Virus record (IMG/VR): IMGVR_UViG_3300040801_000321
Location: 1 to 55,489 of that record
Source of the DNA: a virus
Strand: one strand, 5' to 3'
Length of the DNA stretch: 55,489 nucleotides
A program made the translations under genes and the position numbers. Shown here piece by piece: positions 34,321 through 46,696 of this stretch. The notes under the pieces were generated by a model. The model ran no database searches. It had not been told where the DNA came from and was given only the letters and a program-made list of their open reading frames with translations. How positions within the stretch are numbered: position 1 is the stretch's first letter; every line of letters begins with the position of its first letter.

Positions 34321-34358
34321 AAAAAAAAATGGGGCCAACCTCGAAAGGCTGGCCCCAA
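34321..34358 (-). terminator. Rho-independent terminator
   Basis: The minus strand reads UGGGGCCAGCC-UUUCGA-GGUUGGCCCCA, an 11-bp stem, followed by U9. It starts 8 nt after the DUF932 stop. Confidence 0.9.
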
Positions 34359-34365
34359 GTCATAT

Positions 34366-35355
34366 TCATGCGACAAGCTGTTCTGCTTCCTCCCAAGCAC
34401 GAGCCTTCACAAGACGATTGCCACCGAACCACGCATTGTTCATGCGCGTTGATGTGGTGCGTCCGGACTCGTGATCAGTGAAGCGTGTGACTGCGTTAAC
34501 CGCACCCCACAGCGTACCGTTCGCAGACTTCAGCTCTGCGCCCGGACCTGCGGAATACAGCGTCAGCATTCGCTTGATCTTCTGGCTGTTGGCGGTGATG
34601 TCGTGCTCTGTGACACCCTCTTCGGTGTCTAGGCCGATGGCCTTGAAGAAAAAGCGCACAGCATCATCTTCGCTGATCTTCTGCTTCGCCATCTTGGCGG
34701 CTTTCTTCTCAAAGGCGCCAAACGAATCACCAATCAGCCCCAGCTCTTCCTTGATCAGCGTAGCATCAAACTCGCGTGTGTGCGGAACCCGGATGCGTGA
34801 GCTTGGACGCTCAGCAACGGAAAACTCCAGCGTGTTCTGGCACACTACCCGGACAGATGTGAACTGCCCGATTGTTGCGAGTGACTTGTCGCAGGAAGTT
34901 GCCAACAGCAAGTAAGGCTGGATCAGATCCTGACCCTGAATGCGCGCTTCATACTTCGCACGCGCCAGTGCCCAGACCTTCCGGCCACCATCGAGTGAGC
35001 CCGCAGTCTCAATGCGGAAGTCGCCCGATGCCCCAACAAGCTCCCGGTAAAATTCCAGAATCTCGTTGGGCTGGACAACGTTGTAACCATCCGACACAAC
35101 GCTCAAAGGCATCTGCGTGTCGTCGCGGTAAATGACCATGCGGTCACTGTACTCAACAATGTCCATTTTCTTCGCTGTGGGCTTGCTGATGTCGAAGAGT
35201 ACTGGCGCCTGCACGAGATTGAAATTCAACCCCGCAGCAATGCGCCACTCTTCGATGGTTGAGTCTGGGTCAATTGACTGGCCCAGACCATGCCACGGAA
35301 CGTCGCCAACATATGCCATGTTAGCACGCTCATTAGAAAAGTCGATCATGTGCAT
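34366..35355 (-). CDS. DUF932 family protein (phage/plasmid-like protein)
   Basis: The N-terminus ...MAYVGDVPWHGLGQSI... and the 329-aa size are typical of DUF932. RBS is GAGG. Confidence 0.7.
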   Translation of the reverse strand: MHMIDFSNERANMAYVGDVPWHGLGQSIDPDSTIEEWRIAAGLNFNLVQAPVLFDISKPTAKKMDIVEYSDRMVIYRDDTQMPLSVVSDGYNVVQPNEILEFYRELVGASGDFRIETAGSLDGGRKVWALARAKYEARIQGQDLIQPYLLLATSCDKSLATIGQFTSVRVVCQNTLEFSVAERPSSRIRVPHTREFDATLIKEELGLIGDSFGAFEKKAAKMAKQKISEDDAVRFFFKAIGLDTEEGVTEHDITANSQKIKRMLTLYSAGPGAELKSANGTLWGAVNAVTRFTDHESGRTTSTRMNNAWFGGNRLVKARAWEEAEQLVA

Positions 35356-35376
35356 AATTCACCTCACTCTTATCGT

Positions 35377-35448
35377 TGGGATGCCTCATCGGGCTGTGGG
35401 CTCCCACCCCGCAGCGACATGGCCACCCGAAGGCAGCCATGTTTCGGC
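35377..35448 (-). ncRNA. Hammerhead ribozyme-like element, type II topology, core variant (HHR-12)
   Basis: Minus-strand RNA: GCC-GAAAC-AUGGCUGCC-UUCG-GGUGGCCAU-GUC|GCUGCGGG-GUGGGAG-CCCACAGC-CCGAUGA-GGC-A-UCCCA.
- Stem III is 11 bp with a UUCG loop.
- Stem II is 3 bp (GGC/GCC).
- Loop I UGGGA can pair with the UCCCA tail.
- Core position 4 is C, not U.
- The predicted scissile C is complementary to plus-strand 35416. Confidence 0.6.
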
Positions 35449-35453
35449 TCGTC

Positions 35454-35657
35454 CTATCCTCGCAGACCACAATGCATGTACGCACCCACGAGTATCCTTG
35501 CTTCGTGGTACGTCACGCCGAACTCATCCTCAAGATACGGGCCAGCACCAAACATGTTGGTTTCGCCCGAGTCCCGAAGATTGTCCATGAAGTCGGCAAC
35601 CTCATCAATGCTGAGCCCGACTTCGTCACACACGATCCTCGCTTTCTCATAGTCCAT
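35454..35657 (-). CDS. Hypothetical small protein
   Basis: 67 aa (MDYEKARIVCDEV...). It starts 1 nt after the upstream stop. Confidence 0.55.
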   Translation of the reverse strand: MDYEKARIVCDEVGLSIDEVADFMDNLRDSGETNMFGAGPYLEDEFGVTYHEARILVGAYMHCGLRG

Positions 35658-35658
35658 G

Positions 35659-35877
35659 TTACACCTCCCGCTCTTCGACCACCCAGCCGAAGGATTCCCA
35701 ACGGCCATGGGTTGGTGCGAATTTGTTTATCGTCGTGAGCATGACCCCACGCTTCTGCAGCCCGAAGATTTCGGTTGCGTCTTGCGTGTAGGTGGGCCAG
35801 CACTGATCGTACCGCAGCATGTCTACTGGGAACGGACCTTTGCCTGTGGCGATGAACGTTTTCACTTCACACCTCAT
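35659..35877 (-). CDS. Hypothetical small protein (FIATGKGPFPVDMLRYDQCWP motif)
   Basis: The internal ATG at 35877 or GTG at 35868 overlaps the upstream stop. The motif recurs in phage and plasmid small proteins as far as I recall. Confidence 0.5.
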   Translation of the reverse strand: MRCEVKTFIATGKGPFPVDMLRYDQCWPTYTQDATEIFGLQKRGVMLTTINKFAPTHGRWESFGWVVEEREV

Positions 35878-36124
35878 TGCTGTAAACAGCGAACGGCAAC
35901 AACAGCGCAGCAGCACGTACCATTTCGCCATGGTTGCTGCCGAGCGAGTAGAAGATTGCGTGTGCGCGGTTGCTGTAATCGTCTAGCCTACCAGCATCCG
36001 CGCACAGCTCAACAACTTCGTCGCTGCTGTAGTCGCGTGGGGGAAGATCTGGAGCGATGTCGTTCCAGATCCGGTCAATGGCTCGCGCCAAATAATCAAG
36101 ATCGTCCATAGCAGGTGCGGTCAT
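35867..36124 (-). CDS. Hypothetical small acidic protein
   Basis: The start is refined to MTAPAMDDLDYL. GGGAG lies 6 nt upstream, and the start is 4 nt after the previous stop. Confidence 0.55.
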   Translation of the reverse strand: MTAPAMDDLDYLARAIDRIWNDIAPDLPPRDYSSDEVVELCADAGRLDDYSNRAHAIFYSLGSNHGEMVRAAALLLPFAVYSNEV

Positions 36125-36128
36125 GACG

Positions 36129-36395
36129 TTACTCCCAGTCATCAGGGTACATTCCACCAGCAACCGGATCGTCTGGCCCGGGCAGGTGGCTCAGGCTCAC
36201 TTGCGGATCTGTGTATGCGTTGGACGGCTGCGCATGCGGATACTTGGCCTGTGCTAGTTCAAGAGTCTCAAAGCTGTCAAGCCAGTTCCTGCGCGGCTGC
36301 CCAGCCAGCACGCTGTGTGGCGGGTACTCGTCCCAACCGAACACAACCCACGAGCCATTGCGCATACTCGCAGTGTACATTTCATATTGCTTCAT
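36129..36395 (-). CDS. Hypothetical small protein
   Basis: 88 aa (MKQYEMYTASMRNG...), preceded by GGAGAUAGAUAUG. The listed 189-aa ORF is an artefactual extension through HHR-1. Confidence 0.65.
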   Translation of the reverse strand: MKQYEMYTASMRNGSWVVFGWDEYPPHSVLAGQPRRNWLDSFETLELAQAKYPHAQPSNAYTDPQVSLSHLPGPDDPVAGGMYPDDWE

Positions 36396-36409
36396 ATCTA
36401 TCTCCAATC

Positions 36410-36481
36410 GGCTTGTCTCATCAGTGTACCAGTAGCCAACTGATACAGACACTGCCGAGTTGCCCCGGCAGCGTTTCGACG
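36410..36481 (-). ncRNA. Hammerhead ribozyme, type II topology (HHR-1)
   Basis: Minus-strand RNA: GUC-GAAAC-GCUGCCG-GGGCAACU-CGGCAGU-GUC|UGUAUCAG-UUGGCUA-CUGGUACA-CUGAUGA-GAC-A-AGCC. Loop I GGCU pairs with the AGCC tail. Coordinates are +/-1 because, in my reading, the printed sequence and the ORF track differ by one base between about 36361 and 36720. Confidence 0.8.
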
Positions 36482-36874
36482 TTACGAAAGTTGTTGCAGC
36501 GTCATGCGCTCTGCTTTGTCCTTGAGCCGCGTGACTCGCTCGTTGACGAACTTGGTCCGGGACTTCGTGGCGACGTTCGTGTGCAGCCCGATGTGACTGC
36601 GAAGATCGTCCGCAGTCGGCCACCACACCTTGTCGTTCTCTCCGTCCCAAACATGCCAGTAAGATTCGCCCAGCACCTTCATAAAGTTCAGGCGCCACGC
36701 CATCTCAATGACGTCTTTTTCGTCTTTGAGCCCGTTCATGTCAATGAGCAGGCAGGCCCAAATCAGAGCATTGGTCGATTCCTTGAGCATACCCTTGTGG
36801 GTTGTCTCGTCCCAATCCTCAAAGCAGGTTTTCTGCCAGTCGTTGATCTCACTCAGTGACCAATCTAATGACAT
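36482..36874 (-). CDS. Hypothetical protein (Trp-rich)
   Basis: 130 aa. The stop abuts HHR-1 and the gene is preceded by a stem-loop rather than a ribozyme. Confidence 0.65.
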   Translation of the reverse strand: MSLDWSLSEINDWQKTCFEDWDETTHKGMLKESTNALIWACLLIDMNGLKDEKDVIEMAWRLNFMKVLGESYWHVWDGENDKVWWPTADDLRSHIGLHTNVATKSRTKFVNERVTRLKDKAERMTLQQLS

Positions 36875-36895
36875 CGTAGTGCTCCCATCAAAGTT

Positions 36896-36921
36896 GGTGC
36901 CCGGGACGATTCCCGGGCACC
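36896..36921 (-). other. Intercistronic 11-bp stem-loop (no U-tract)
   Basis: The minus strand reads GGUGCCCGGGA-AUCG-UCCCGGGCACC, between 36934..37521 and 36482..36874. This is the only junction in the array without a hammerhead. Confidence 0.6.
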
Positions 36922-36933
36922 GTGTACGCAGAC

Positions 36934-37521
36934 CTAACTCTCAATCACCAGATAGGCTGCCTTGGGGTCGATCAGCTTCTGCAGGACGCCCATAGCAGAA
37001 CCGCGAGAGCTGATGCCCTCAAGTGTCTGCAGCTCCGCGATAAAGTCCTCAACCGGCATCTTGTTGCCGCGTTGCTGCTTCAGCAGCTCCACAGCAGACC
37101 ACCGCAGTGAGCCCTCACGCATCTTCATCAGTGGCTCCGGGTTAACCCGGACGACACCAACAACCGCATTGCGCGTGCGCCCACGAGACTTTTTCACATC
37201 GCCCTTTTCAGGTGGCGTCTTGCCCTTCGGCTTGCTGCCCTTCGGCGCGTCAACCTCCGGCCACTCAGCACCGTCCAGCGCAGCAGCAGTGCGCGTCGCA
37301 GCGTCTGCTGCGGTTGCGAACTTTTTGATGTCTGCTGTCCCGGGGATGCTGTTGTAGATCGAGACGAGTGCCTTGCCCTTAAATGCGGTGGCCACTTGTT
37401 CAGCGGTGCCGACATAGAAGTCAAAGCTGACGCTCTCAGCGTATGCCTCAGCGTCCGCAATCGTCGGGAACTTCCCAACAACCACGCTCTTGTCCACGTT
37501 CACTAAGTATGATGTGCTCAT
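36934..37521 (-). CDS. Hypothetical protein with a basic Lys/Pro-rich linker
   Basis: 195 aa with an ATG start about 24 nt after HHR-2. The middle segment is PKGSKPKGKTPPEKGDVKKSRGR. Confidence 0.65.
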   Translation of the reverse strand: MSTSYLVNVDKSVVVGKFPTIADAEAYAESVSFDFYVGTAEQVATAFKGKALVSIYNSIPGTADIKKFATAADAATRTAAALDGAEWPEVDAPKGSKPKGKTPPEKGDVKKSRGRTRNAVVGVVRVNPEPLMKMREGSLRWSAVELLKQQRGNKMPVEDFIAELQTLEGISSRGSAMGVLQKLIDPKAAYLVIES

Positions 37522-37544
37522 CTATATTCTCCTGTCGTTATGTT

Positions 37545-37613
37545 GTGTCTGTCTCATCAGTGCCCGGATGACACGTTCCGGGCAGACACGCTCCGGGTGG
37601 AGCGTGTTTCGAC
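37545..37613 (-). ncRNA. Hammerhead ribozyme, type II topology (HHR-2)
   Basis: Minus-strand RNA: GUC-GAAAC-ACGCUCC-ACCC-GGAGCGU-GUC|UGCCCGGA-ACGUGUCA-UCCGGGCA-CUGAUGA-GAC-A-GACAC. Here loop I GUGUC pairs with a different tail, GACAC, which is a compensated pseudoknot. The scissile C is opposite 37585. Confidence 0.8.
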
Positions 37614-37614
37614 G

Positions 37615-37956
37615 TTATGAAAGTTCACGCAGCAGCTCTGCGCGCAGCTCAGCATTCGGATCGAATGCGCTGATGGTGTGCTTGTCCTTGTCTTCGTTCA
37701 AGGCTTCCAGCATACCGTCATACGCTTCCATGAAGTGCCTGCGGAAGTTCTTGGCGAACTCATCAGGCATCTTCCGGGCCAGCTCCGGACATCCCTCAGC
37801 GGTCATGTCCAGCGCCAGAAGCGCGCACGCAGAGCTCATCAGCTTCTGCGCAGCCTCAGCGACCTCCAGCGCATTGCGCGGAGAATCGACAGCGAGCATC
37901 AACAATGCTTTGGAAGTGGCATTGATGAGTTCCTTGGCTTCAATCTTTTCTTTCAT
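37615..37956 (-). CDS. Hypothetical small helical protein
   Basis: 113 aa (MKEKIEAKELINAT...), preceded by GGGAGAUGAUCAUG. The stop is 1 nt from HHR-2. Confidence 0.6.
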   Translation of the reverse strand: MKEKIEAKELINATSKALLMLAVDSPRNALEVAEAAQKLMSSACALLALDMTAEGCPELARKMPDEFAKNFRRHFMEAYDGMLEALNEDKDKHTISAFDPNAELRAELLRELS

Positions 37957-37971
37957 GATCATCTCCCAATC

Positions 37972-38035
37972 GGCTTGTCTCATCAGCGCCCGGGTAGCCA
38001 ACCCGGAACGGACGCGCCCGCAGGCGCGTTTCGAC
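37972..38035 (-). ncRNA. Hammerhead ribozyme, type II topology (HHR-3)
   Basis: Minus-strand RNA: GUC-GAAAC-GCGCC-UGCG-GGCGC-GUC|CGUUCCGGG-UUGGCUA-CCCGGGCG-CUGAUGA-GAC-A-AGCC. The scissile C is opposite 38011. Confidence 0.85.
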
Positions 38036-38036
38036 G

Positions 38037-38426
38037 TTATGACTCTTGCGGCCTCATCTGCAGCTTCAGCGTTCCGAGCAGGCCACGATGCTTCATCCAT
38101 TCGTGCACCTCTTTCTCGCCACCATGCGACGCCATGGGCACGTAGTTGTAGATGACGTGGGCGTAACCGCGAACCGCTGCGGCATTCGACTCGTCAGCGT
38201 GACGGAACGTCTGCAGCAGATTGTTCTCGAACACATTGAGCAGGAAGCCACCCATGGGGCGACCATCCATCACATAGGCCAACAGCTCATTCCGCATGTA
38301 GCCCGGAATATCCTGCTCACGCATGCCGGCAGCAACCTTCGCATAGACGGCTTCTGCGACTTCGCGCATGCTCCCATTCAGGTCGGTGTAAGCAGCGCCA
38401 TATTCCCGTTCAAGTTCAACGTTCAT
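38037..38426 (-). CDS. Hypothetical protein
   Basis: 129 aa (MNVELEREYGAAYTDLNG...), preceded by GGAGAUUGAUAUG. The listed 205-aa ORF runs through HHR-4. Confidence 0.65.
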   Translation of the reverse strand: MNVELEREYGAAYTDLNGSMREVAEAVYAKVAAGMREQDIPGYMRNELLAYVMDGRPMGGFLLNVFENNLLQTFRHADESNAAAVRGYAHVIYNYVPMASHGGEKEVHEWMKHRGLLGTLKLQMRPQES

Positions 38427-38440
38427 ATCAATCTCCAATC

Positions 38441-38504
38441 GGTTTGTCTCATCAGCGCCCGGGTAACCACCCCGGAACGGACGCGCCCGCAGGCGCGTTT
38501 CGAC
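38441..38504 (-). ncRNA. Hammerhead ribozyme, type II topology (HHR-4)
   Basis: Minus-strand RNA: GUC-GAAAC-GCGCC-UGCG-GGCGC-GUC|CGUUCCGGG-GUGGUUA-CCCGGGCG-CUGAUGA-GAC-A-AACC. Loop GGUU pairs with tail AACC, which covaries with the GGCU/AGCC pairing in other copies. The scissile C is opposite 38480. Confidence 0.85.
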
Positions 38505-38505
38505 A

Positions 38506-38706
38506 TCAAAAGAAATGTGTGCGGGATTCGCCGCAACGAGTGCATTGAATCTCTTCACCGCCATCTTCCGGATACACCACGCACACTTCCCAACGGTGGC
38601 CGCGAATCCGGCAGACCAACCGCTCAAACTTGTAAGCGATGAAGTCTGCCACACGCAACCGCATTGTTGGGTATGGCGTGTGCAGGAAGTCTTGCCACGT
38701 TAGCAT
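38506..38706 (-). CDS. Hypothetical small protein (C-terminal CxxC)
   Basis: 66 aa with a 7-nt overlap onto the upstream gene. The stop is 1 nt from HHR-4. Confidence 0.5.
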   Translation of the reverse strand: MLTWQDFLHTPYPTMRLRVADFIAYKFERLVCRIRGHRWEVCVVYPEDGGEEIQCTRCGESRTHFF

Positions 38707-38900
38707 GGGGCACCTCGCTCGATCTCAATGTGAAGTATTTCGTGCTGCTCCAGAAGATCGACAACCGCGCATTGAAGTGTGCGGCTATCTTCCAGAGCAT
38801 CAGCAGCAGCCCGCAGCACTTCCGGAAAACTCCGGAACGTTGCTGCTTGCTTGTTGCCGTTAACACGCCAGATGCGGAGCTCAAACGTATCTTCGTTCAT
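38700..38900 (-). CDS. Hypothetical small protein
   Basis: 66 aa with an ATGA overlap onto the stop of 38897..39184. Confidence 0.5.
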   Translation of the reverse strand: MNEDTFELRIWRVNGNKQAATFRSFPEVLRAAADALEDSRTLQCAVVDLLEQHEILHIEIERGAPC

Positions 38901-39184
38901 GCTCTACTCTTCCCGTCGCCCAGCATCACGCGTGTGGCGCGGTTGATCTCGCGCTGTTGCGGAGAGCAAGCCCGTTCCAGACGTTCTTGCTGATAGCGGA
39001 TGTAAGCATCCACATCAGGCTGGACTTCCTCGATCAGCTTCCTGAGCTGATTAAGTTCTGAGTTGAGCTCACGAGCGTATCCGAGTGCGTGCGACTCCAG
39101 CCCGCCACCGCAGCGTTCTGCTTCGATGTACTTGGACTCGATCCGCGACATGGCATTCTTCAGCCAGTGAATTTGTGTCTTCAT
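38897..39184 (-). CDS. Hypothetical coiled-coil protein
   Basis: 95 aa (MKTQIHWLKNAMSRIESKY...), preceded by GGAGACGAAGAUG. Confidence 0.6.
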   Translation of the reverse strand: MKTQIHWLKNAMSRIESKYIEAERCGGGLESHALGYARELNSELNQLRKLIEEVQPDVDAYIRYQQERLERACSPQQREINRATRVMLGDGKSRA

Positions 39185-39198
39185 CTTCGTCTCCAATC

Positions 39199-39263
39199 GG
39201 CTTGTCTCATCAGCGCCCGGGTAGCCAACCCGGAACGGACGGCAGCACTGCTGCCGTTTCGAC
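39199..39263 (-). ncRNA. Hammerhead ribozyme, type II topology (HHR-5)
   Basis: Minus-strand RNA: GUC-GAAAC-GGCAG-CAGUG-CUGCC-GUC|CGUUCCGGG-UUGGCUA-CCCGGGCG-CUGAUGA-GAC-A-AGCC. The stem III sequence differs from HHR-3 and HHR-4 but stays paired. The scissile C is opposite 39238. Confidence 0.85.
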
Positions 39264-39264
39264 T

Positions 39265-39462
39265 CTAGAATTCAACTGACCTGCCCGTCTCTTCCCAGCA
39301 CGTCAGGTCAAACTTGAAGAACCTGCCCTGCCCGCAAAGCAGCGTTGCCATTTCGCGTGCCTTTGTGGTGGCTTCCTCGCGATTCACGTGACCGAACTCA
39401 ACGCGGCAGTAGTGCTTGACGCGGGTGTCGGTGATCTCTGCGATGTTCAGTGAGTATCTCAT
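39265..39462 (-). CDS. Hypothetical small protein
   Basis: 65 aa (MRYSLNIAEITDTRVKHY...), preceded by GGAGAUGAUAAUG. Confidence 0.55.
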   Translation of the reverse strand: MRYSLNIAEITDTRVKHYCRVEFGHVNREEATTKAREMATLLCGQGRFFKFDLTCWEETGRSVEF

Positions 39463-39476
39463 TATCATCTCCAATC

Positions 39477-39539
39477 GGTTTGTCTCATCAGTGATGAAGT
39501 AACCAGCTTCACCAGACGCGCCCGCAGGCGCGTTTCGAC
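39477..39539 (-). ncRNA. Hammerhead ribozyme, type II topology (HHR-6)
   Basis: Minus-strand RNA: GUC-GAAAC-GCGCC-UGCG-GGCGC-GUC|UGGUGAAG-CUGGUUA-CUUCAUCA-CUGAUGA-GAC-A-AACC. The scissile C is opposite 39515. Confidence 0.85.
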
Positions 39540-39540
39540 T

Positions 39541-39822
39541 TCACGAGTCATCCTCTTCAGCATCAGCATTTGCTGCCTTGATCTGATCGTCGTGCTCGCC
39601 TTTGTCGAGGATTCGATCAACGATGTCCTCTTCGGTGCCGTTGCACTCTTCGTTCACCAGCAAAGCAATCTGTGCGCACATCGAGACCAGCTCAATGGCT
39701 GCGCGCTCTTCGTCGCGGGACAGCTTGCCTTTGCCTTCGACAAAAAGAGTCTCAAGCGCCAGCTGGCACTCGCCAAGATCAGTCAGCGTATTCTGGAACC
39801 GGCAGTAGCTCATATTGCTCAT
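39541..39822 (-). CDS. Hypothetical acidic protein (MSNMSYCRFQNT... N-terminus)
   Basis: 93 aa, preceded by GGAGAUGAUAAUG, with an acidic C-terminus. Confidence 0.6.
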   Translation of the reverse strand: MSNMSYCRFQNTLTDLGECQLALETLFVEGKGKLSRDEERAAIELVSMCAQIALLVNEECNGTEEDIVDRILDKGEHDDQIKAANADAEEDDS

Positions 39823-39836
39823 TATCATCTCCAATC

Positions 39837-39902
39837 GGTTTGTCTCATCAGCGCCCGGGTAACCAGCCCGGAACGGACGGCAGCACGTGCTGCCGTTTCG
39901 AC
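39837..39902 (-). ncRNA. Hammerhead ribozyme, type II topology (HHR-7)
   Basis: Minus-strand RNA: GUC-GAAAC-GGCAGC-ACGU-GCUGCC-GUC|CGUUCCGGG-CUGGUUA-CCCGGGCG-CUGAUGA-GAC-A-AACC. The stop codon of the upstream gene overlaps the first ribozyme nucleotide. The scissile C is opposite 39876. Confidence 0.85.
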
Positions 39903-40189
39903 TATGACCGCACCTTGAATGCGGTGAGTGGATATGCCCAGCCCGAAGTCGGGCTGCCACGCTCCGGGACAGCATACACTTCAAACTCAGCAGGCGCGTA
40001 ACTCTTCAGCATCGAGTTGCGACTGCCGGGATTGTATGTGCGTCCCGGAACCTTGATCACGACCACATCATTGGAGTCTTGGATGAGCTTGGTGCCGTTT
40101 GGCGTTTCCCATCCCCTGCGAATGACGTTATCGGGATCTGACCAGTCCATGTAGACTCTGGATGTGCTTGTGACTTTGTTAACGTACAT
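39902..40189 (-). CDS. Hypothetical small protein
   Basis: 95 aa (MYVNKVTSTSRVYMDW...), preceded by GGAGAUGAACAUG. Confidence 0.6.
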   Translation of the reverse strand: MYVNKVTSTSRVYMDWSDPDNVIRRGWETPNGTKLIQDSNDVVVIKVPGRTYNPGSRNSMLKSYAPAEFEVYAVPERGSPTSGWAYPLTAFKVRS

Positions 40190-40203
40190 GTTCATCTCCA
40201 ATC

Positions 40204-40267
40204 GGCTTGTCTCATCAGCGCCCGGGTAGCCATCCCGGAACGGACGCCACCGCAGTGGCGTTTCGAC
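40204..40267 (-). ncRNA. Hammerhead ribozyme, type II topology (HHR-8)
   Basis: Minus-strand RNA: GUC-GAAAC-GCCAC-UGCG-GUGGC-GUC|CGUUCCGGG-AUGGCUA-CCCGGGCG-CUGAUGA-GAC-A-AGCC. The scissile C is opposite 40243. Confidence 0.85.
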
Positions 40268-40268
40268 A

Positions 40269-40520
40269 TCAGCTCGTCACAACCTCGCGCCAGTCGGTCC
40301 CGGCCAAGATCTGCTCAGCTTGCTTGCGGCTGATCTGGCCATAAAGCGAGTGCTGGAACGTCACTCGCGTCTTGTCGTTGGAAGTGAAGTGCTTCACCTC
40401 AACCGACACGCCATGCTCGCCTTGGACCACCGTGGAATATCCCGGCTTACCTCTCATGTACAGGTAGCACCTGTCTTCCTGTGCGCGAGCCTTATTGATA
40501 AGTTGTAAGGTTCTGTTCAT
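40269..40520 (-). CDS. Hypothetical small protein
   Basis: 83 aa (MNRTLQLINKARAQEDR...), preceded by GGAGAUUGAUAUG. Confidence 0.6.
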   Translation of the reverse strand: MNRTLQLINKARAQEDRCYLYMRGKPGYSTVVQGEHGVSVEVKHFTSNDKTRVTFQHSLYGQISRKQAEQILAGTDWREVVTS

Positions 40521-40534
40521 ATCAATCTCCAATC

Positions 40535-40600
40535 GGTTTGTCTCATCAGTGGCGAAGTAACCAGCTTCACCAGACGCGCCCTCCATGGGCGCGTTTCGAC
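40535..40600 (-). ncRNA. Hammerhead ribozyme, type II topology (HHR-9)
   Basis: Minus-strand RNA: GUC-GAAAC-GCGCCC-AUGGA-GGGCGC-GUC|UGGUGAAG-CUGGUUA-CUUCGCCA-CUGAUGA-GAC-A-AACC. The scissile C is opposite 40573. Confidence 0.85.
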
Positions 40601-40601
40601 G

Positions 40602-40916
40602 TTAGTGGATCGAAACAAGGTCAGCGGCTTCCATCGTCCGGAGCAGCCACTTGGCGCGGCCAACCGGATTCGCTGCGCCATTCCTCTCAAGCGCAACCGC
40701 GATACGCTTCAGTGCGTAGGCAGTCTTGACCCTGTTCTTGGCATCTGCGTGCTGGCGAAGAGTCGTGATGGCGATGTCGCGCTCAGAACCTTCGAACACG
40801 TAGCGGTCCTCAAGTGCCTTCTCATGAAGCACCACAGAACCATCATTCCAATTGCGGCGGTTGTAGGTCTTGCCGTAGTTGGTGCCATGTGCCGTCTTGT
40901 TAGTACGTGCGTTCAT
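40602..40916 (-). CDS. Hypothetical protein
   Basis: 104 aa (MNARTNKTAHGTNYGK...), preceded by GGAGAACUGAGAUG. Confidence 0.65.
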   Translation of the reverse strand: MNARTNKTAHGTNYGKTYNRRNWNDGSVVLHEKALEDRYVFEGSERDIAITTLRQHADAKNRVKTAYALKRIAVALERNGAANPVGRAKWLLRTMEAADLVSIH

Positions 40917-40938
40917 CTCAGTTCTCCATTTAGTTATC

Positions 40939-41001
40939 GGCTTGTCTCATCAGTGTAACGGGAGCCACCCGTTACAGACGCGCCCGCAGGCGCGTTTCGA
41001 C
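40939..41001 (-). ncRNA. Hammerhead ribozyme, type II topology (HHR-10)
   Basis: Minus-strand RNA: GUC-GAAAC-GCGCC-UGCG-GGCGC-GUC|UGUAACGGG-UGGCU-CCCGUUACA-CUGAUGA-GAC-A-AGCC. The scissile C is opposite 40977. Confidence 0.85.
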
Positions 41002-41002
41002 A

Positions 41003-41203
41003 TCAGCTGACCTTGTGGCTGCGAAGTGCCTTGTATGCGGCATCGCGAGCTGCGACCAGCGCAGCTTCCAAACGTTCCACATCTTCCATGCTCCAATCTT
41101 CATCGGAACAGTTCAGCTCATCCGTCATTCTGCTATCAAAAAGTTCCTCGAACATCTCATCAAGCAGACCAGAAGCAGCAATCTTGATTTGGCGCTTGTT
41201 CAT
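41003..41203 (-). CDS. Hypothetical small acidic protein
   Basis: 66 aa (MNKRQIKIAASGLLDEMFEE...), preceded by GGAGAUUAUCAUG. It is the first cistron of the array. Confidence 0.55.
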   Translation of the reverse strand: MNKRQIKIAASGLLDEMFEELFDSRMTDELNCSDEDWSMEDVERLEAALVAARDAAYKALRSHKVS

Positions 41204-41217
41204 GATAATCTCCAATC

Positions 41218-41297
41218 GGCTTGTCTCATCGGTGCCGTGGTAGCCGACCACGACAGACACCCAACGTCCCTGTGGGACGGCTTACGGGTGTTTCGAC
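41218..41297 (-). ncRNA. Hammerhead ribozyme-like element, type II topology, core variant (HHR-11)
   Basis: Minus-strand RNA: GUC-GAAAC-ACCC-[GUAAGCC GUCCC-ACA-GGGAC GUU]-GGGU-GUC|UGUCGUGG-UCGGCUA-CCACGGCA-CCGAUGA-GAC-A-AGCC. Core position 4 is C instead of U. Stem III carries an insert that is also found as a repeat at 41489..41512. Confidence 0.6.
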
Positions 41298-41515
41298 ATT
41301 TGGAGTAGATGAATATGACTTATCAGCAGGCAGCGTCTATCATGGCGCATCCCTGTGGGATGACTTATGCCGTTCTGTCGCGACATGGGGCTGTCGCGAA
41401 CTCTGAACATCTGACGGCTTACGTTGTGGAGTTGACCTGCTGTTGTTGGATACCGTTCTGCGGTCTTGCCAAATTTGGAGCTGGTGTTAACGTCCCTGTG
41501 GGACGGCTTACAACA
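41263..41515. repeat. Iteron-like degenerate direct repeats (CCCTGTGGGA-YG-RCTTAY)
   Basis: - Full copies: caacgtccctgtgggacggcttac at 41263..41286 and aacgtccctgtgggacggcttac at 41489..41512.
- Variant: catccctgtgggatgacttatgcc at about 41348..41372.
- Partial copies: acggcttac at 41414..41422 and tgacttatcag at about 41316.
- Also present: tgtcgcga twice, at 41376 and 41391. Confidence 0.6.
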
Positions 41516-41519
41516 GGCA

Positions 41520-41750
41520 CAGCTTCGCCTTTGGCTTCTCAGATTGGGCAACCGCAGGTTCTTGCTCGGTGCCTCCTTGAGCCCCTAGCTTTTCGGGAGT
41601 CCTTCCGGTTAGCGGTCTTGGCTTTCGCCTCACGAGTGGTCCCGGTTGGGCCGAACTCTCCAGTTTCCAGTGCCGCCTCCCGGCGTGATCCCCTTGGGGG
41701 AAACTGGTCGCCACCTCTAGGTCGGTGACTTGGCGGTTTTCTCCCCGCCT
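41520..41750. other. GC-rich, densely self-complementary noncoding segment (candidate structured RNA or origin element)
   Basis: No convincing ORF. Many local helices can be drawn, for example CCAGUUUCC...GGAAACUGG (9 bp) enclosing GCCG-CCUCC-CGGC, as well as GGCGG-UUUUCUCC-CCGCC and GAGU-GGUCCCGGUUGGGCC-GAACUC. The strand is unknown. Confidence 0.3.
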
Positions 41751-41853
41751 GCAGATAGTGTAGGTGATTTGTGAACTAAAGTAAAGGATAGTTTTGCTTT
41801 GATTTTCAACACCTTACAAGCCATTGTTCACTGTTTAGGCCAAAAATCTGTGG

Positions 41854-41884
41854 TTTTTCGGGGTTTTCGGGCACTTTCGGGCAG
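41854..41884. repeat. Three phased TTTCGGG repeats (about 10-11 bp period)
   Basis: The sequence is tttttcgggg ttttcgggcac tttcgggcag, which has helical phasing suggestive of intrinsically bent DNA. It lies between ATTGTTCA (about 41823) and TGAACAAT (about 41899). Confidence 0.5.
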
Positions 41885-41934
41885 AAAGCGTGGCACCTGA
41901 ACAATCCATTTCACAAGGTAATTCCCAGCATATC

Positions 41935-45010: not shown

Positions 45011-45805
45011 TTAGAACGCTTCATCATCCTTCGGCTGTTCGCCTGCGAGCACTTCATCCGCACCAGCACGATCCGTGTCGATCTTCCCGGACGTGATGTT
45101 GTTGCGGAATCCCTTGCTGTGGTTGTAAAGCGACGTATCAGCCACCATGCCCTCGCGCTCAATCGCCCAACCGTACCATGTGCCCTTTTCATTGGACTCT
45201 TGGGTTGAGGTCAGCTTGTAGATGTGCGAGAACATTGGCGCCCGGAACTGCCCGTGCGAACCGTTCAGGAAGGTATTATTCATAATCGTCATCCACTGCC
45301 GGGACTTTTTGATCTGCGATGACGTCATGCTGATGAGCGCAGGCTCATACGATCCGTCATCATTGATCACGACCACGTAGTGGTTGCGGTTGTCGTTGAG
45401 CACATTCCCGTTCGGCAGCACGCGTGCCTTGGTCTTGGGATTGATATCACAACGCTCGTACAACTCCAGACCTTGCTCCTGATCGTACTCCGCGACGAAG
45501 CCACCACCCTCATCCCGGGGCACCCACTCCACAAACGTCCGGGTGTAGTGAACCGGGATCACGCGGATGTTGTCATAGCAACGCTTTGTGACGGTGTTGA
45601 TGATCTTGCCGACTTCTGCCCCGGGAATTTTCCCTGACCCGGGCTGGACCGCTGGCGACAGCGGCTGCAGGATTGCGAGAAACGGAATTGCGAAGCTGTC
45701 CTTGGTAGCCTCTTCAAAACCGATCCCGGCGTCAGCTTGGAACTCCATCATCACCTCAGCAGGCAATGCGGTCTTGTCTTCCTTCTGTGCGATCTGCTTA
45801 CTCAT
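45011..45805 (-). CDS. Hypothetical replication-module protein (possible ssDNA-binding or annealing protein)
   Basis: 264 aa with RBS GAGAGGAAAA and an acidic C-terminal tail (EQPKDDEAF), as in SSB-type proteins. The function is not established. Confidence 0.35.
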   Translation of the reverse strand: MSKQIAQKEDKTALPAEVMMEFQADAGIGFEEATKDSFAIPFLAILQPLSPAVQPGSGKIPGAEVGKIINTVTKRCYDNIRVIPVHYTRTFVEWVPRDEGGGFVAEYDQEQGLELYERCDINPKTKARVLPNGNVLNDNRNHYVVVINDDGSYEPALISMTSSQIKKSRQWMTIMNNTFLNGSHGQFRAPMFSHIYKLTSTQESNEKGTWYGWAIEREGMVADTSLYNHSKGFRNNITSGKIDTDRAGADEVLAGEQPKDDEAF

Positions 45806-45813
45806 TTTTCCTC

Positions 45814-46359
45814 TCACTTTATCTTAGCAACGTTACGAACATACACACCAAACAGATCCGGAGGCACAGGCCTGCCGGATTCTGATTGCTCTTTCACAAA
45901 CGCCTTGAGCGTCTGCGGGTGCACCAGAGTCTTGTCTGAAAATTCGTAGCCCTGATCCATCAGGTAATCCGCGAGTGCGGCGGCACGCTCGTCCTCAGAG
46001 CGAGTAAAGTTCATCTGCAGTTGGTGCTTGATCAGATCTGCGAAACCGTTTTTGCGCAGCCACTCAAACGCCTGCTCCTGCAGCTTCCCGGGAATGCTGG
46101 CGTGGTATGTGGTCTCGATGGAAACTTGCGAACCGTCTGCGAGCGAGATTTTCACCATACCCAACTCATTCATCGCTTCCGGCAGCTGATCCTCCACGAC
46201 CACCTTCAGCTGCGCATTGAGTGCTGACAGCTCTTCGGAACGCTGCGCGATTTCAGCCTGCAATTCCCGGGCCTTTCGCGTCAGCTTAGAAACTAGGCTG
46301 AGGTCATCGCCTGATATCTGCTCAATATCAGACTCAAAATCAATCTGTCCAGTCATCAT
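45814..46359 (-). CDS. Hypothetical protein with an N-terminal coiled coil
   Basis: About 181 aa. GGAGG lies just upstream of tandem ATGs. No motif recognised. Confidence 0.5.
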   Translation of the reverse strand: MMTGQIDFESDIEQISGDDLSLVSKLTRKARELQAEIAQRSEELSALNAQLKVVVEDQLPEAMNELGMVKISLADGSQVSIETTYHASIPGKLQEQAFEWLRKNGFADLIKHQLQMNFTRSEDERAAALADYLMDQGYEFSDKTLVHPQTLKAFVKEQSESGRPVPPDLFGVYVRNVAKIK

Positions 46360-46696
46360 TGCCTCCATTAACGTTATATCGAATCGCAGTGTACCTGCGA
46401 GTGTGATGGTCCCACTTCAACAAACGGAACCAGTTCCACCCCATGCTGTGGAGTAGAAACCCTGTTGCTACCATGATAGCAGGATCACCCACAGGCAGGA
46501 TGTAATCCTCTGCTGGGTCGAAGTCCCGCAGCTGCTCGCGCATATTCAGTAGCATCGGCCCAGCAGCATAACTGATAGGCCCATCCGGATTCAGGAACAC
46601 AATGTCCCCATACGCGGTAGCAGGACGAATGTCGAACTTCATCCGGCGCTGGCCGTTATCAAACACCACTGGCTCTTGTGTAACGTACACGGTCAT
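46340..46696 (-). CDS. Hypothetical protein
   Basis: 118-aa ORF with an ATGA overlap onto the SNF2 helicase stop. Confidence 0.55.
   Translation of the reverse strand: MTVYVTQEPVVFDNGQRRMKFDIRPATAYGDIVFLNPDGPISYAAGPMLLNMREQLRDFDPAEDYILPVGDPAIMVATGFLLHSMGWNWFRLLKWDHHTRRYTAIRYNVNGGNDDWTD

Follow-up and report, generated by a model that had tools for sequence, protein, structure and literature searches.

An array of type II hammerhead ribozymes between small orphan genes in a 7-kb viral operon

Clusters of type II hammerhead ribozymes were described in prophages in 2011, and transcript processing was proposed as their role (Perreault et al. 2011, PMC3088659). In that study, ardA was flanked by hammerheads, triple arrangements were cleaved in vitro, and similar clustered hammerheads were cleaved both in vitro and in vivo. 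The role of many phage and bacterial hammerheads was still called open in 2019 (PMC6765202). Repeated regulatory elements are also found between small genes in T4-type phages, whose PeSL cassettes consist of a promoter and a terminator stem-loop (Arbiol et al. 2010, PMC2839356; Comeau et al. 2014, PMC4122927). Here we describe an operon in which small orphan genes alternate with type II hammerheads. It lies in a viral sequence of 55,489 nt, IMG/VR record IMGVR_UViG_3300040801_000321, positions 1 to 55,489, the whole of which is referred to below as the window. We consider it likely that the locus is a single self-cutting operon whose repeated junctions supply the homology for cassette turnover.

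The ribozymes and the operon that they divide

All genes of the window are on the minus strand. The operon spans 41297-34330 on that strand (∼7 kb) and comprises 17 small genes, a DUF932 gene and a terminator. The small open reading frames (ORFs), of 65-195 aa and located between 41203 and 35454, agree in number and size with those reported in an earlier note on this sequence, and each has a GGAG-type Shine-Dalgarno (SD) sequence. A codon-usage score trained on the window's large genes was positive for all 17 in the annotated frame, and for 16 of them exceeded the score of every alternative frame. By this score, the 17 ORFs look like real, long-resident genes. The earlier note had placed all of the small genes behind ribozyme junctions. 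This arrangement was found for 11 of the 17 (genes 1-7, 10, 11, 12 and 14). By contrast, genes 8, 9, 15, 16 and 17 are coupled to their upstream neighbour by overlap or by 1-4 nt, and gene 13 is preceded by a 59-nt spacer that contains a hairpin and no ribozyme.

A profile match and a terminator scan of both strands confirmed that the operon ends in a DUF932 gene followed by the only strong intrinsic terminator. Gene 18 (34366..35355, minus strand) encodes a protein of 329 aa that matches PF06067 with an E value of 3e-56 and 191 bits, against a cutoff of 23, over profile positions 1-223 of 227. No function was given for DUF932 in the literature searched. The terminator (34330..34357, minus strand) begins 9 nt after the DUF932 stop codon and has a 12-bp stem with eight GC pairs, a 4-nt loop and T9. 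No other hairpin-plus-T-run of that strength was detected by our scan on either strand of the whole 55.5-kb window.

The junctions had been taken for hammerhead ribozymes from the letters alone, and 12 type II hammerheads were indeed recognised in them by Rfam, by eye and with a covariance model of our own. According to the Rfam model Hammerhead_II (RF02276), eight of the 12 lie above the gathering threshold of 37 bits, at 37.4-49.6 bits, and J7, J18 and J1 lie below it, at 36.2, 32.7 and 27.9 bits, respectively. J14 was not listed by Rfam cmscan; it was recognised by eye and by our model, which was built from the 12 ribozymes and gives J14, itself a training member, 76 bits. This model matches exactly these 12 in the window and nothing elsewhere in it. 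All 12 possess a stem II, the GAA, a stem III of 7-11 bp, the cleavage triplet GUC (C17) and a stem I of 8-9 bp. The core is the full consensus CUGAUGA in 10 of them and CCGAUGA (U4C) in J1 and J18, while stem II is GUC/GAC in 11 and GCC/GGC in J18, the last of the series. J1 and J18 are also the most divergent copies.

In all 12, loop I and the 3′ tail pair in a 5-bp pseudoknot, which occurs in five covarying versions, among them UGGCU/AGCC, UGGUU/AACC, GUGUC/GACAC and UGGGA/UCCCA. In an alignment of 47 ribozymes from this and other viral contigs, which was fitted to the model and is thus biased towards structure, pairing was present in 98.2% of cells as compared with 65% in shuffles, and double changes were present at 16 of 19 base pairs.

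All of the ribozymes are on the minus strand. The series opens with J1 (41213..41297; predicted cleavage after C 41256), whose stem III is extended by a 23-nt motif, and continues with J2 (40934..41001; after 40977; 44.3 bits), J3 (40530..40600; after 40573), J4 (40199..40267; after 40243) and J5 (39832..39902; after 39876), the first G of which is common with the TAG stop of gene 4. Next are J6 (39472..39539; after 39515), J7 (39194..39263; after 39238), J10 (38436..38504; after 38480; 47.2 bits) and J11 (37967..38035; after 38011). J3, J4, J6 and J11 are among those above the gathering score. J12 (37541..37613; after 37585; 49.6 bits) differs from the others in its leader and in its pseudoknot, GUGUC/GACAC. 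The last two are J14 (36405..36480; after 36448) and J18 (35373..35448; after 35416), in which the pseudoknot is UGGGA/UCCCA.

The ribozymes have a fixed register with respect to the genes. Each starts 0-3 nt past the upstream stop codon, except for the one that shares a base with it, and the predicted cleavage sites lie 27-45 nt downstream of the stop. The pseudoknot tail is followed by the leader GAUUGGAGAU, four bases (N4) and ATG. The earlier note had assigned a GATTGGAGAT leader to the junctions; this exact sequence occurs in seven and a one-base variant in two more, so that the leader is common but not uniform across all 12. Cleavage at every site would yield 12 RNAs, of which eight are monocistronic small-gene RNAs of 277-469 nt and three are polycistronic (genes 7-9, 758 nt; genes 12-13, 1137 nt; genes 14-17, 1032 nt); the predicted DUF932 mRNA is 1086 nt. 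Promoter-like sites in the region numbered seven, against 6.3 expected from shuffles, and all were weak (9 of 12 matches). There was no U tract behind the junction hairpins.

These features suggest the following mechanism. A minus-strand primary transcript running from ∼41.3 kb to 34.33 kb would cut itself at the 12 hammerheads into 12 RNAs. Since the ribozyme begins 0-3 nt past the stop codon and cleaves 27-45 nt on, the upstream product would retain its own stop codon, and its 3′ end would be the GC-rich hairpin of stem III bearing a 2′,3′-cyclic phosphate. The downstream product would begin with a 5′-OH and the stem I hairpin, locked by the pseudoknot, followed by GAUUGGAGAU, N4 and AUG. 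The ribozyme would thus act as a natural insulator: any ORF placed behind it would receive the same 5′ end, the same ribosome-binding context and protected ends. The junction, being repeated many times, provides homology for recombination, and units of ribozyme, leader and ORF could be deleted, inserted or exchanged within junctions, each product remaining expressible. The cargo would consist of accessory proteins that are unrelated to one another.

Cassette loss and junction reshuffling

Exact-protein look-up located short contigs of this phage, one SRA run and JGI samples 3300040792-97 being their sources. Their gene order is that of the window with a single exception, contig L165 (sample 3300040796), which covers gene 7 to gene 16 and lacks 422 bp consisting of ribozyme J11, its leader and gene 11. 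In the window, this unit (37606..38027, minus strand) is delimited by 15-nt direct repeats, TCATAACGTCGAAAC, at 38028-38042 and 37606-37620. The join in L165 falls inside TCATAACGTCGAAAC, with which genes 10 and 11 both end and which forms the 5′ edges of the ribozymes J11 and J12. L165 also carries a single-nucleotide polymorphism (SNP) of its own in gene 10, and gene 11 is kept in contigs from four other samples. A repeat of 15 nt is too short to mislead an assembler that uses long k-mers, as this one presumably did, and we therefore take the deletion to be a real allele.

The similarity among the junctions is uneven. Of the five junctions that had been put above 85% identity, a few pairs reach this level (J4/J10, 88%; J10/J11, 88%; J5/J7, 90%), whereas the best group as a whole (J4, J5, J7, J10 and J11) spans 69-90%; J3/J6 are 83% identical. 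J2, J6, J10 and J11 have one and the same stem III (100% identity). For stem I, identity is 100% between J7 and J11 and 92-96% between these and J4, J5 and J10; J3 and J6 have another stem I type in common. Because base pairing does not need such identity, as the free covariation elsewhere indicates, the identical stems point to recent copying. Moreover, all four combinations of stem III type with pseudoknot type are present, as are all four of stem I type with leader type. This pattern requires either exchange between copies or repeated parallel change at several bases.

A relative, L179, is ∼74% identical to the window and shares its arrangement from gene 11 through a ribozyme, gene 12, the hairpin and gene 13 to a further ribozyme. 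At the J12 site, the orthologous ribozyme of L179 has kept its fold by compensatory changes, with stem II AUC/GAU and a sixth version of the pseudoknot, GUCU/AGAC. Its stem III is of the type seen at J3 of the window. Between the window and L179, nucleotide identity is 91% in gene 11 and 69% in the ribozyme, and synonymous divergence (dS) is 0.36 for gene 11, 0.93 for gene 12 and 1.68 for gene 13.

Comparable arrays occur on other contigs from uncultivated viruses, with at least 10 hammerheads in L090, 10 in L251, seven in L195, seven in L261 and six in L089. Every array examined has the order stop codon, ribozyme, uniform leader and ATG, and the leader is specific to each phage. Arrays of seven or more were found at three of 100 sampled ribozyme-bearing viral loci. 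Homologues of the window's proteins were absent from loci L001-L163, which include the first arrays; this comparison left out L186-L304, to which L251, L195 and L261 belong. Two further lineages, unrelated to this phage, show breaks at such boundaries. In one, two indels of whole cassettes separate L086 from L093 (∼93% identity), one with its crossover in the repeated leader and the other starting at the 3′ end of a ribozyme. In the other, made up of L087, L094, L095 and L091, the ribozyme is 86-93% identical, and the similarity of the 250-bp flanks is that of the shuffled baseline (59-65%), one comparison excepted.

These comparisons bear on a proposal of the earlier note, that the junctions serve as portals for homologous recombination and that related genomes should differ in gene content precisely there. 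Both parts are supported: gene content differs at ribozyme or leader boundaries in L165 and between L086 and L093, and the reshuffled junction halves, the switch of stem III type in L179 and the breaks in L087, L094, L095 and L091 are of the kind that such portals would leave.

The array at positions 1-4611 of L090 (IMGVR_UViG_3300033112_000310, a 112-kb contig) holds its hammerheads, at least 10, within 4.6 kb. Many of its leaders contain an extra short repeat, AAGCGGCAC or similar, and it has stem II GCC/GGC and CUGACGA cores. Relatives of the present array were also sought. Megablast of the region against phage genomes and sensitive blastn of one junction gave no match, and a long exact junction pattern had none in IMG/VR. 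Matches to the junction pattern in JGI metagenomes and GTDB genomes were rejected as chance matches inside coding sequence. The helicase adjoining the array has IMG/VR relatives of ≤35% identity only, none of them with the array.

Cargo genes and surrounding sequence

All cargo genes are on the minus strand. The first six are gene 1 (41003..41203; 66 aa, acidic), gene 2 (40602..40916; 104 aa, basic), gene 3 (40269..40520; 83 aa), gene 4 (39902..40189; 95 aa), gene 5 (39541..39822; 93 aa, acidic, phrog_8760) and gene 6 (39265..39462; 65 aa). Genes 7, 8 and 9 (39184-38897, 38900-38700 and 38706-38506; 95, 66 and 66 aa) form a mutually overlapping tricistronic unit with no internal ribozyme. They are followed by gene 10 (38037..38426; 129 aa), gene 11 (37615..37956; 113 aa, helical and acidic), which is present or absent in the population, gene 12 (36934..37521; 195 aa), in which a basic linker joins an N-terminal domain to a C-terminal three-helix domain, and gene 13 (36482..36874; 130 aa), which has nine Trp residues. 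Genes 14-17 (36395-36129, 36124-35867, 35865-35659 and 35657-35454; 88, 85, 68 and 67 aa) form a tetracistronic unit, in which gene 16 is phrog_11674.

The earlier description of acidic, Trp-rich and Cys-pair proteins is accurate: the isoelectric points of the products of genes 1, 5, 14, 15 and 17 are 4.1-4.6, gene 13 is the Trp-rich one, and gene 9 contains Cys pairs. The same holds for the statement that the cargo lacks assignable motifs, in that the 17 proteins had no Pfam domain above threshold, no NCBIfam match and no PDB sequence match. There are no paralogues among them. Gene 9 has a weak Cys-pair match to DUF1660 and phrog_2670, and the PHROGs families of genes 5 and 16 carry no functional annotation. 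A tblastn search of 50,697 phage genomes returned nine weak matches, to genes 10, 13 and 16, all of them hypothetical proteins in runs of small genes; a distant homologue of gene 10 is EBPR podovirus 2 gp61. Gene 12 had two homologues in 5.8 billion proteins, and gene 11 two credible ones in 1.84 billion representatives. For gene 5, 17 homologues were found in diverse metagenomes; their first 12 residues, MSNMSYCRFQNT, are invariant in 17 of 17, and the remainder is ∼50% identical.

Structure prediction, which the earlier note had put forward as a check on the cargo, covered two of the 17 proteins. Two AlphaFold2 models were obtained, a helical hairpin for gene 5 (pLDDT, the model's confidence score, 75) and a model of gene 12 (pLDDT 62); neither matched a PDB fold. 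None of the 17 proteins matched ArdA, Ocr, Acr or other known anti-defence proteins in sequence. The suggestion that the cargo takes over the host or counters its defences thus draws nothing from family or structure, and what favours it is context. A DUF932 gene is present here; ArdA, DUF932 and DUF2786/DUF7168 are among the nameable ORFs of other hammerhead arrays, where few of the 60 ORFs sampled could be named; and ardA lies in a cluster described previously (PMC3088659). A role in host interaction or anti-defence is tentative, somewhat short of an even chance in our estimate, being drawn from context because no cargo protein matches a known family or structure.

On L180 (ENA ERZ23498360 scaffold_769356), the C-terminal 140 aa of a gene 12 homologue are fused in frame to a fragment of peptidase S13. 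The fusion point is a 22-nt stretch identical to the window, ATCTACAACAGCATCCCCGGGA; it may stem from a misassembled, chimeric contig or from a genuine fusion of the two domains. At the gene 12/gene 13 junction, the only long one without a ribozyme, an 11-bp, GC-rich hairpin without a U tract was read from the sequence (36896..36921, minus strand). Its stem is kept in L179, although the spacer is just 56% identical.

Upstream of the array, a stretch of ∼630 bp (41299..41934, minus strand) has a negative codon-usage score in all six frames. This stretch probably serves as a non-coding leader or as a regulatory region and would contain the operon promoter, although no promoter was found there. 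A 139-aa ORF on the plus strand (41309-41728), which has a good SD and is a called gene in JGI contigs, was rejected for its non-coding-like codon usage in every frame. It is probably spurious; if real, it would overlap the first ribozyme at its start, on the other strand. This apparently non-coding region and J1 also contain copies of a 23-nt motif, GTAAGCCGTCCCACAGGGACGTT, that includes the hairpin GTCCC-ACA-GGGAC. The copies are at 41263-41285, 41489-41511, 41346-41368 and 41413-41423 (minus strand), two being exact, one a 74% variant and one a half-site. One exact copy is the tip of stem III in J1. The motif could be an operator or the site of an RNA-binding protein that controls the operon or the first cleavage.

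Elsewhere in the window, three adjoining genes at 45011-46696 match Pam3 phage gp34-, gp33- and gp32-like families. Also encoded are ThyX, a DnaE-type polymerase that is accompanied by a separate RNase T-like exonuclease, and an AEP primase domain of the TOTE-conflict-system type. The ORFs scanned included no integrase or repressor.

Competing explanations and known systems

Several observations weigh against a self-cutting operon with cassette turnover at its junctions. Cleavage in vivo is deduced from the intact, covarying structure of the ribozymes, and a U4C change in the hammerhead core is expected from mutational work to slow cleavage, so J1 and J18 may be slow or regulated cleavers. Thermodynamic folding with a pseudoknot-free model showed no consistent gain in SD accessibility upon cleavage. 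In the comparison with L179, gene 12 remains similar over its first third (dS 0.48), so the break in divergence is not exactly at the ribozyme. The deletion variant is known from a single short-read metagenomic contig, and the phage, IMG/VR, JGI and GTDB collections held no close complete relative in which cassette order could be followed genome-wide. No Rfam ribozyme was found beside the homologues of genes 5, 10, 13 and 16 or of DUF932 in other phages; since these homologues lack adjoining ribozymes, the cassettes are not mobile together with the ribozyme over long evolutionary distances. Finally, the function proposed for the cargo has no backing from homology.

Some of these observations would be expected if the ribozymes only process RNA, with tandem duplication and selection for a single ribozyme and ribosome-binding site accounting for the likeness of the junctions and a rare accident or assembly error for L165; the junctions would then have no particular part in gene turnover. 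Cargo homologues without ribozymes fit this explanation, as does the single deletion contig in this phage, and a tree without recombination accommodates the combinations of stem III with stem I when these are considered by themselves. However, two other pairs of characters show all four combinations, and the identical stems exceed what function needs where covariation is otherwise free. The 15-nt repeat is too short for a long-k-mer misjoin, the SNP marks L165 as distinct, and boundaries of this kind carry indels and mosaic breaks in independent lineages as well. We regard processing alone as unlikely. Less probable by far is that a repetitive mobile RNA or DNA element left the hammerheads behind as relics without function for the phage. 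The copies are indeed repeated and similar, but all of them lie on the coding strand and keep a constant register to the stop codon and the SD, with an intact core and covarying base pairs, and at the orthologous site in L179, a 74%-identical relative, the fold is conserved despite a sequence identity of 69%. This explanation we consider the most improbable of those weighed.

It is also conceivable that the excised units are ligated into circles, or joined to other units, through rebuilt hybrid hammerheads. Nearly all junctions have the same stem II and core (stem II is the near-uniform GUC/GAC of 11 junctions), so the ends of a unit could rebuild such a hammerhead. Hammerhead cleavage leaves a 5′-OH and a 2′,3′-cyclic phosphate, ends that suit RtcB, and ligation by the ribozyme or by host RtcB would give circular, exonuclease-resistant mRNAs, as in viroids and retrozymes. 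Against this, a 3-bp stem II closing a loop of 300-1100 nt is weak, the last internal unit would have a GCC versus GAC mismatch, and the window ORFs scanned with Pfam include no RNA ligase, RtcB or end-healing enzyme. Earlier work on clustered hammerheads allowed for the formation of circles; circular or spliced products were sought there and none found (PMC3088659). We judge both circles and joined units very improbable. Were they to form, unit ligation would be the RNA-level counterpart of DNA-level cassette shuffling.

The self-cutting operon with recombining junctions, which we favour, is a concrete and testable model. The ribozyme would insulate inserted genes by giving them a standard, protected mRNA, and as a repeat it would supply the homology through which phages could gain, lose and exchange accessory genes with expression intact. 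The model would link ribozyme biology to the turnover of accessory phage regions, orphan and anti-defence, and would provide a natural counterpart of engineered insulators. The 17 expressed-looking orphan proteins are candidates for host-interaction screens.

Each of the known systems resembles the locus in part. Integron arrays likewise consist of promoterless single-ORF cassettes in one orientation, with a common promoter and a structured repeat between them. Unlike in integrons, the repeat here is a ribozyme and not attC, and the sole deletion seen is between short direct repeats; the ORFs scanned contained no integrase domain, and no specific search for attC sites was made. In synthetic insulators such as RiboJ, a hammerhead-type ribozyme just upstream of the ribosome-binding site yields the same 5′ end whatever lies upstream. 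The present ribozymes are similarly placed and would standardise the 5′ end in the same manner, but they are natural and multi-copy, and they would also shape the 3′ end of the preceding mRNA. PeSL cassettes share with the locus a short, conserved regulatory motif that is repeated between small orphan genes (ORFans) in a plastic region, and recombination from copy to copy that leads to gene insertion, deletion or replacement, as indicated here by the indels and breaks bounded by the repeat (L165; L086/L093; L087/L094/L095/L091). Since a PeSL comprises a promoter and a terminator stem-loop, each PeSL gene is its own transcription unit. By contrast, the present operon has one terminator and one inferred promoter, its repeats lack the strong sigma-70 promoter and the terminator stem-loop of a PeSL, and the repeat acts on RNA, as a predicted self-cleaving ribozyme.

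The closest likeness is to the clustered hammerheads of PMC3088659, which are also of type II, have the pseudoknot of loop I with the 3′ tail, and lie in phage DNA on either side of individual genes or of short gene blocks whose identity varies. Compared with those clusters, the present locus has 12 ribozymes in one 7-kb operon, a near-uniform SD leader fused to the ribozyme tail, and direct evidence of cassette loss and junction reshuffling, which we did not find described in the literature searched. Clustered phage hammerheads have thus been known since 2011, and the size of the array, the uniform leader and turnover at the level of the cassette are new. The locus joins PeSL-like shuffling of orphan genes with a ribozyme as the repeat, in an unusually large array and with a deletion caught in a natural population.

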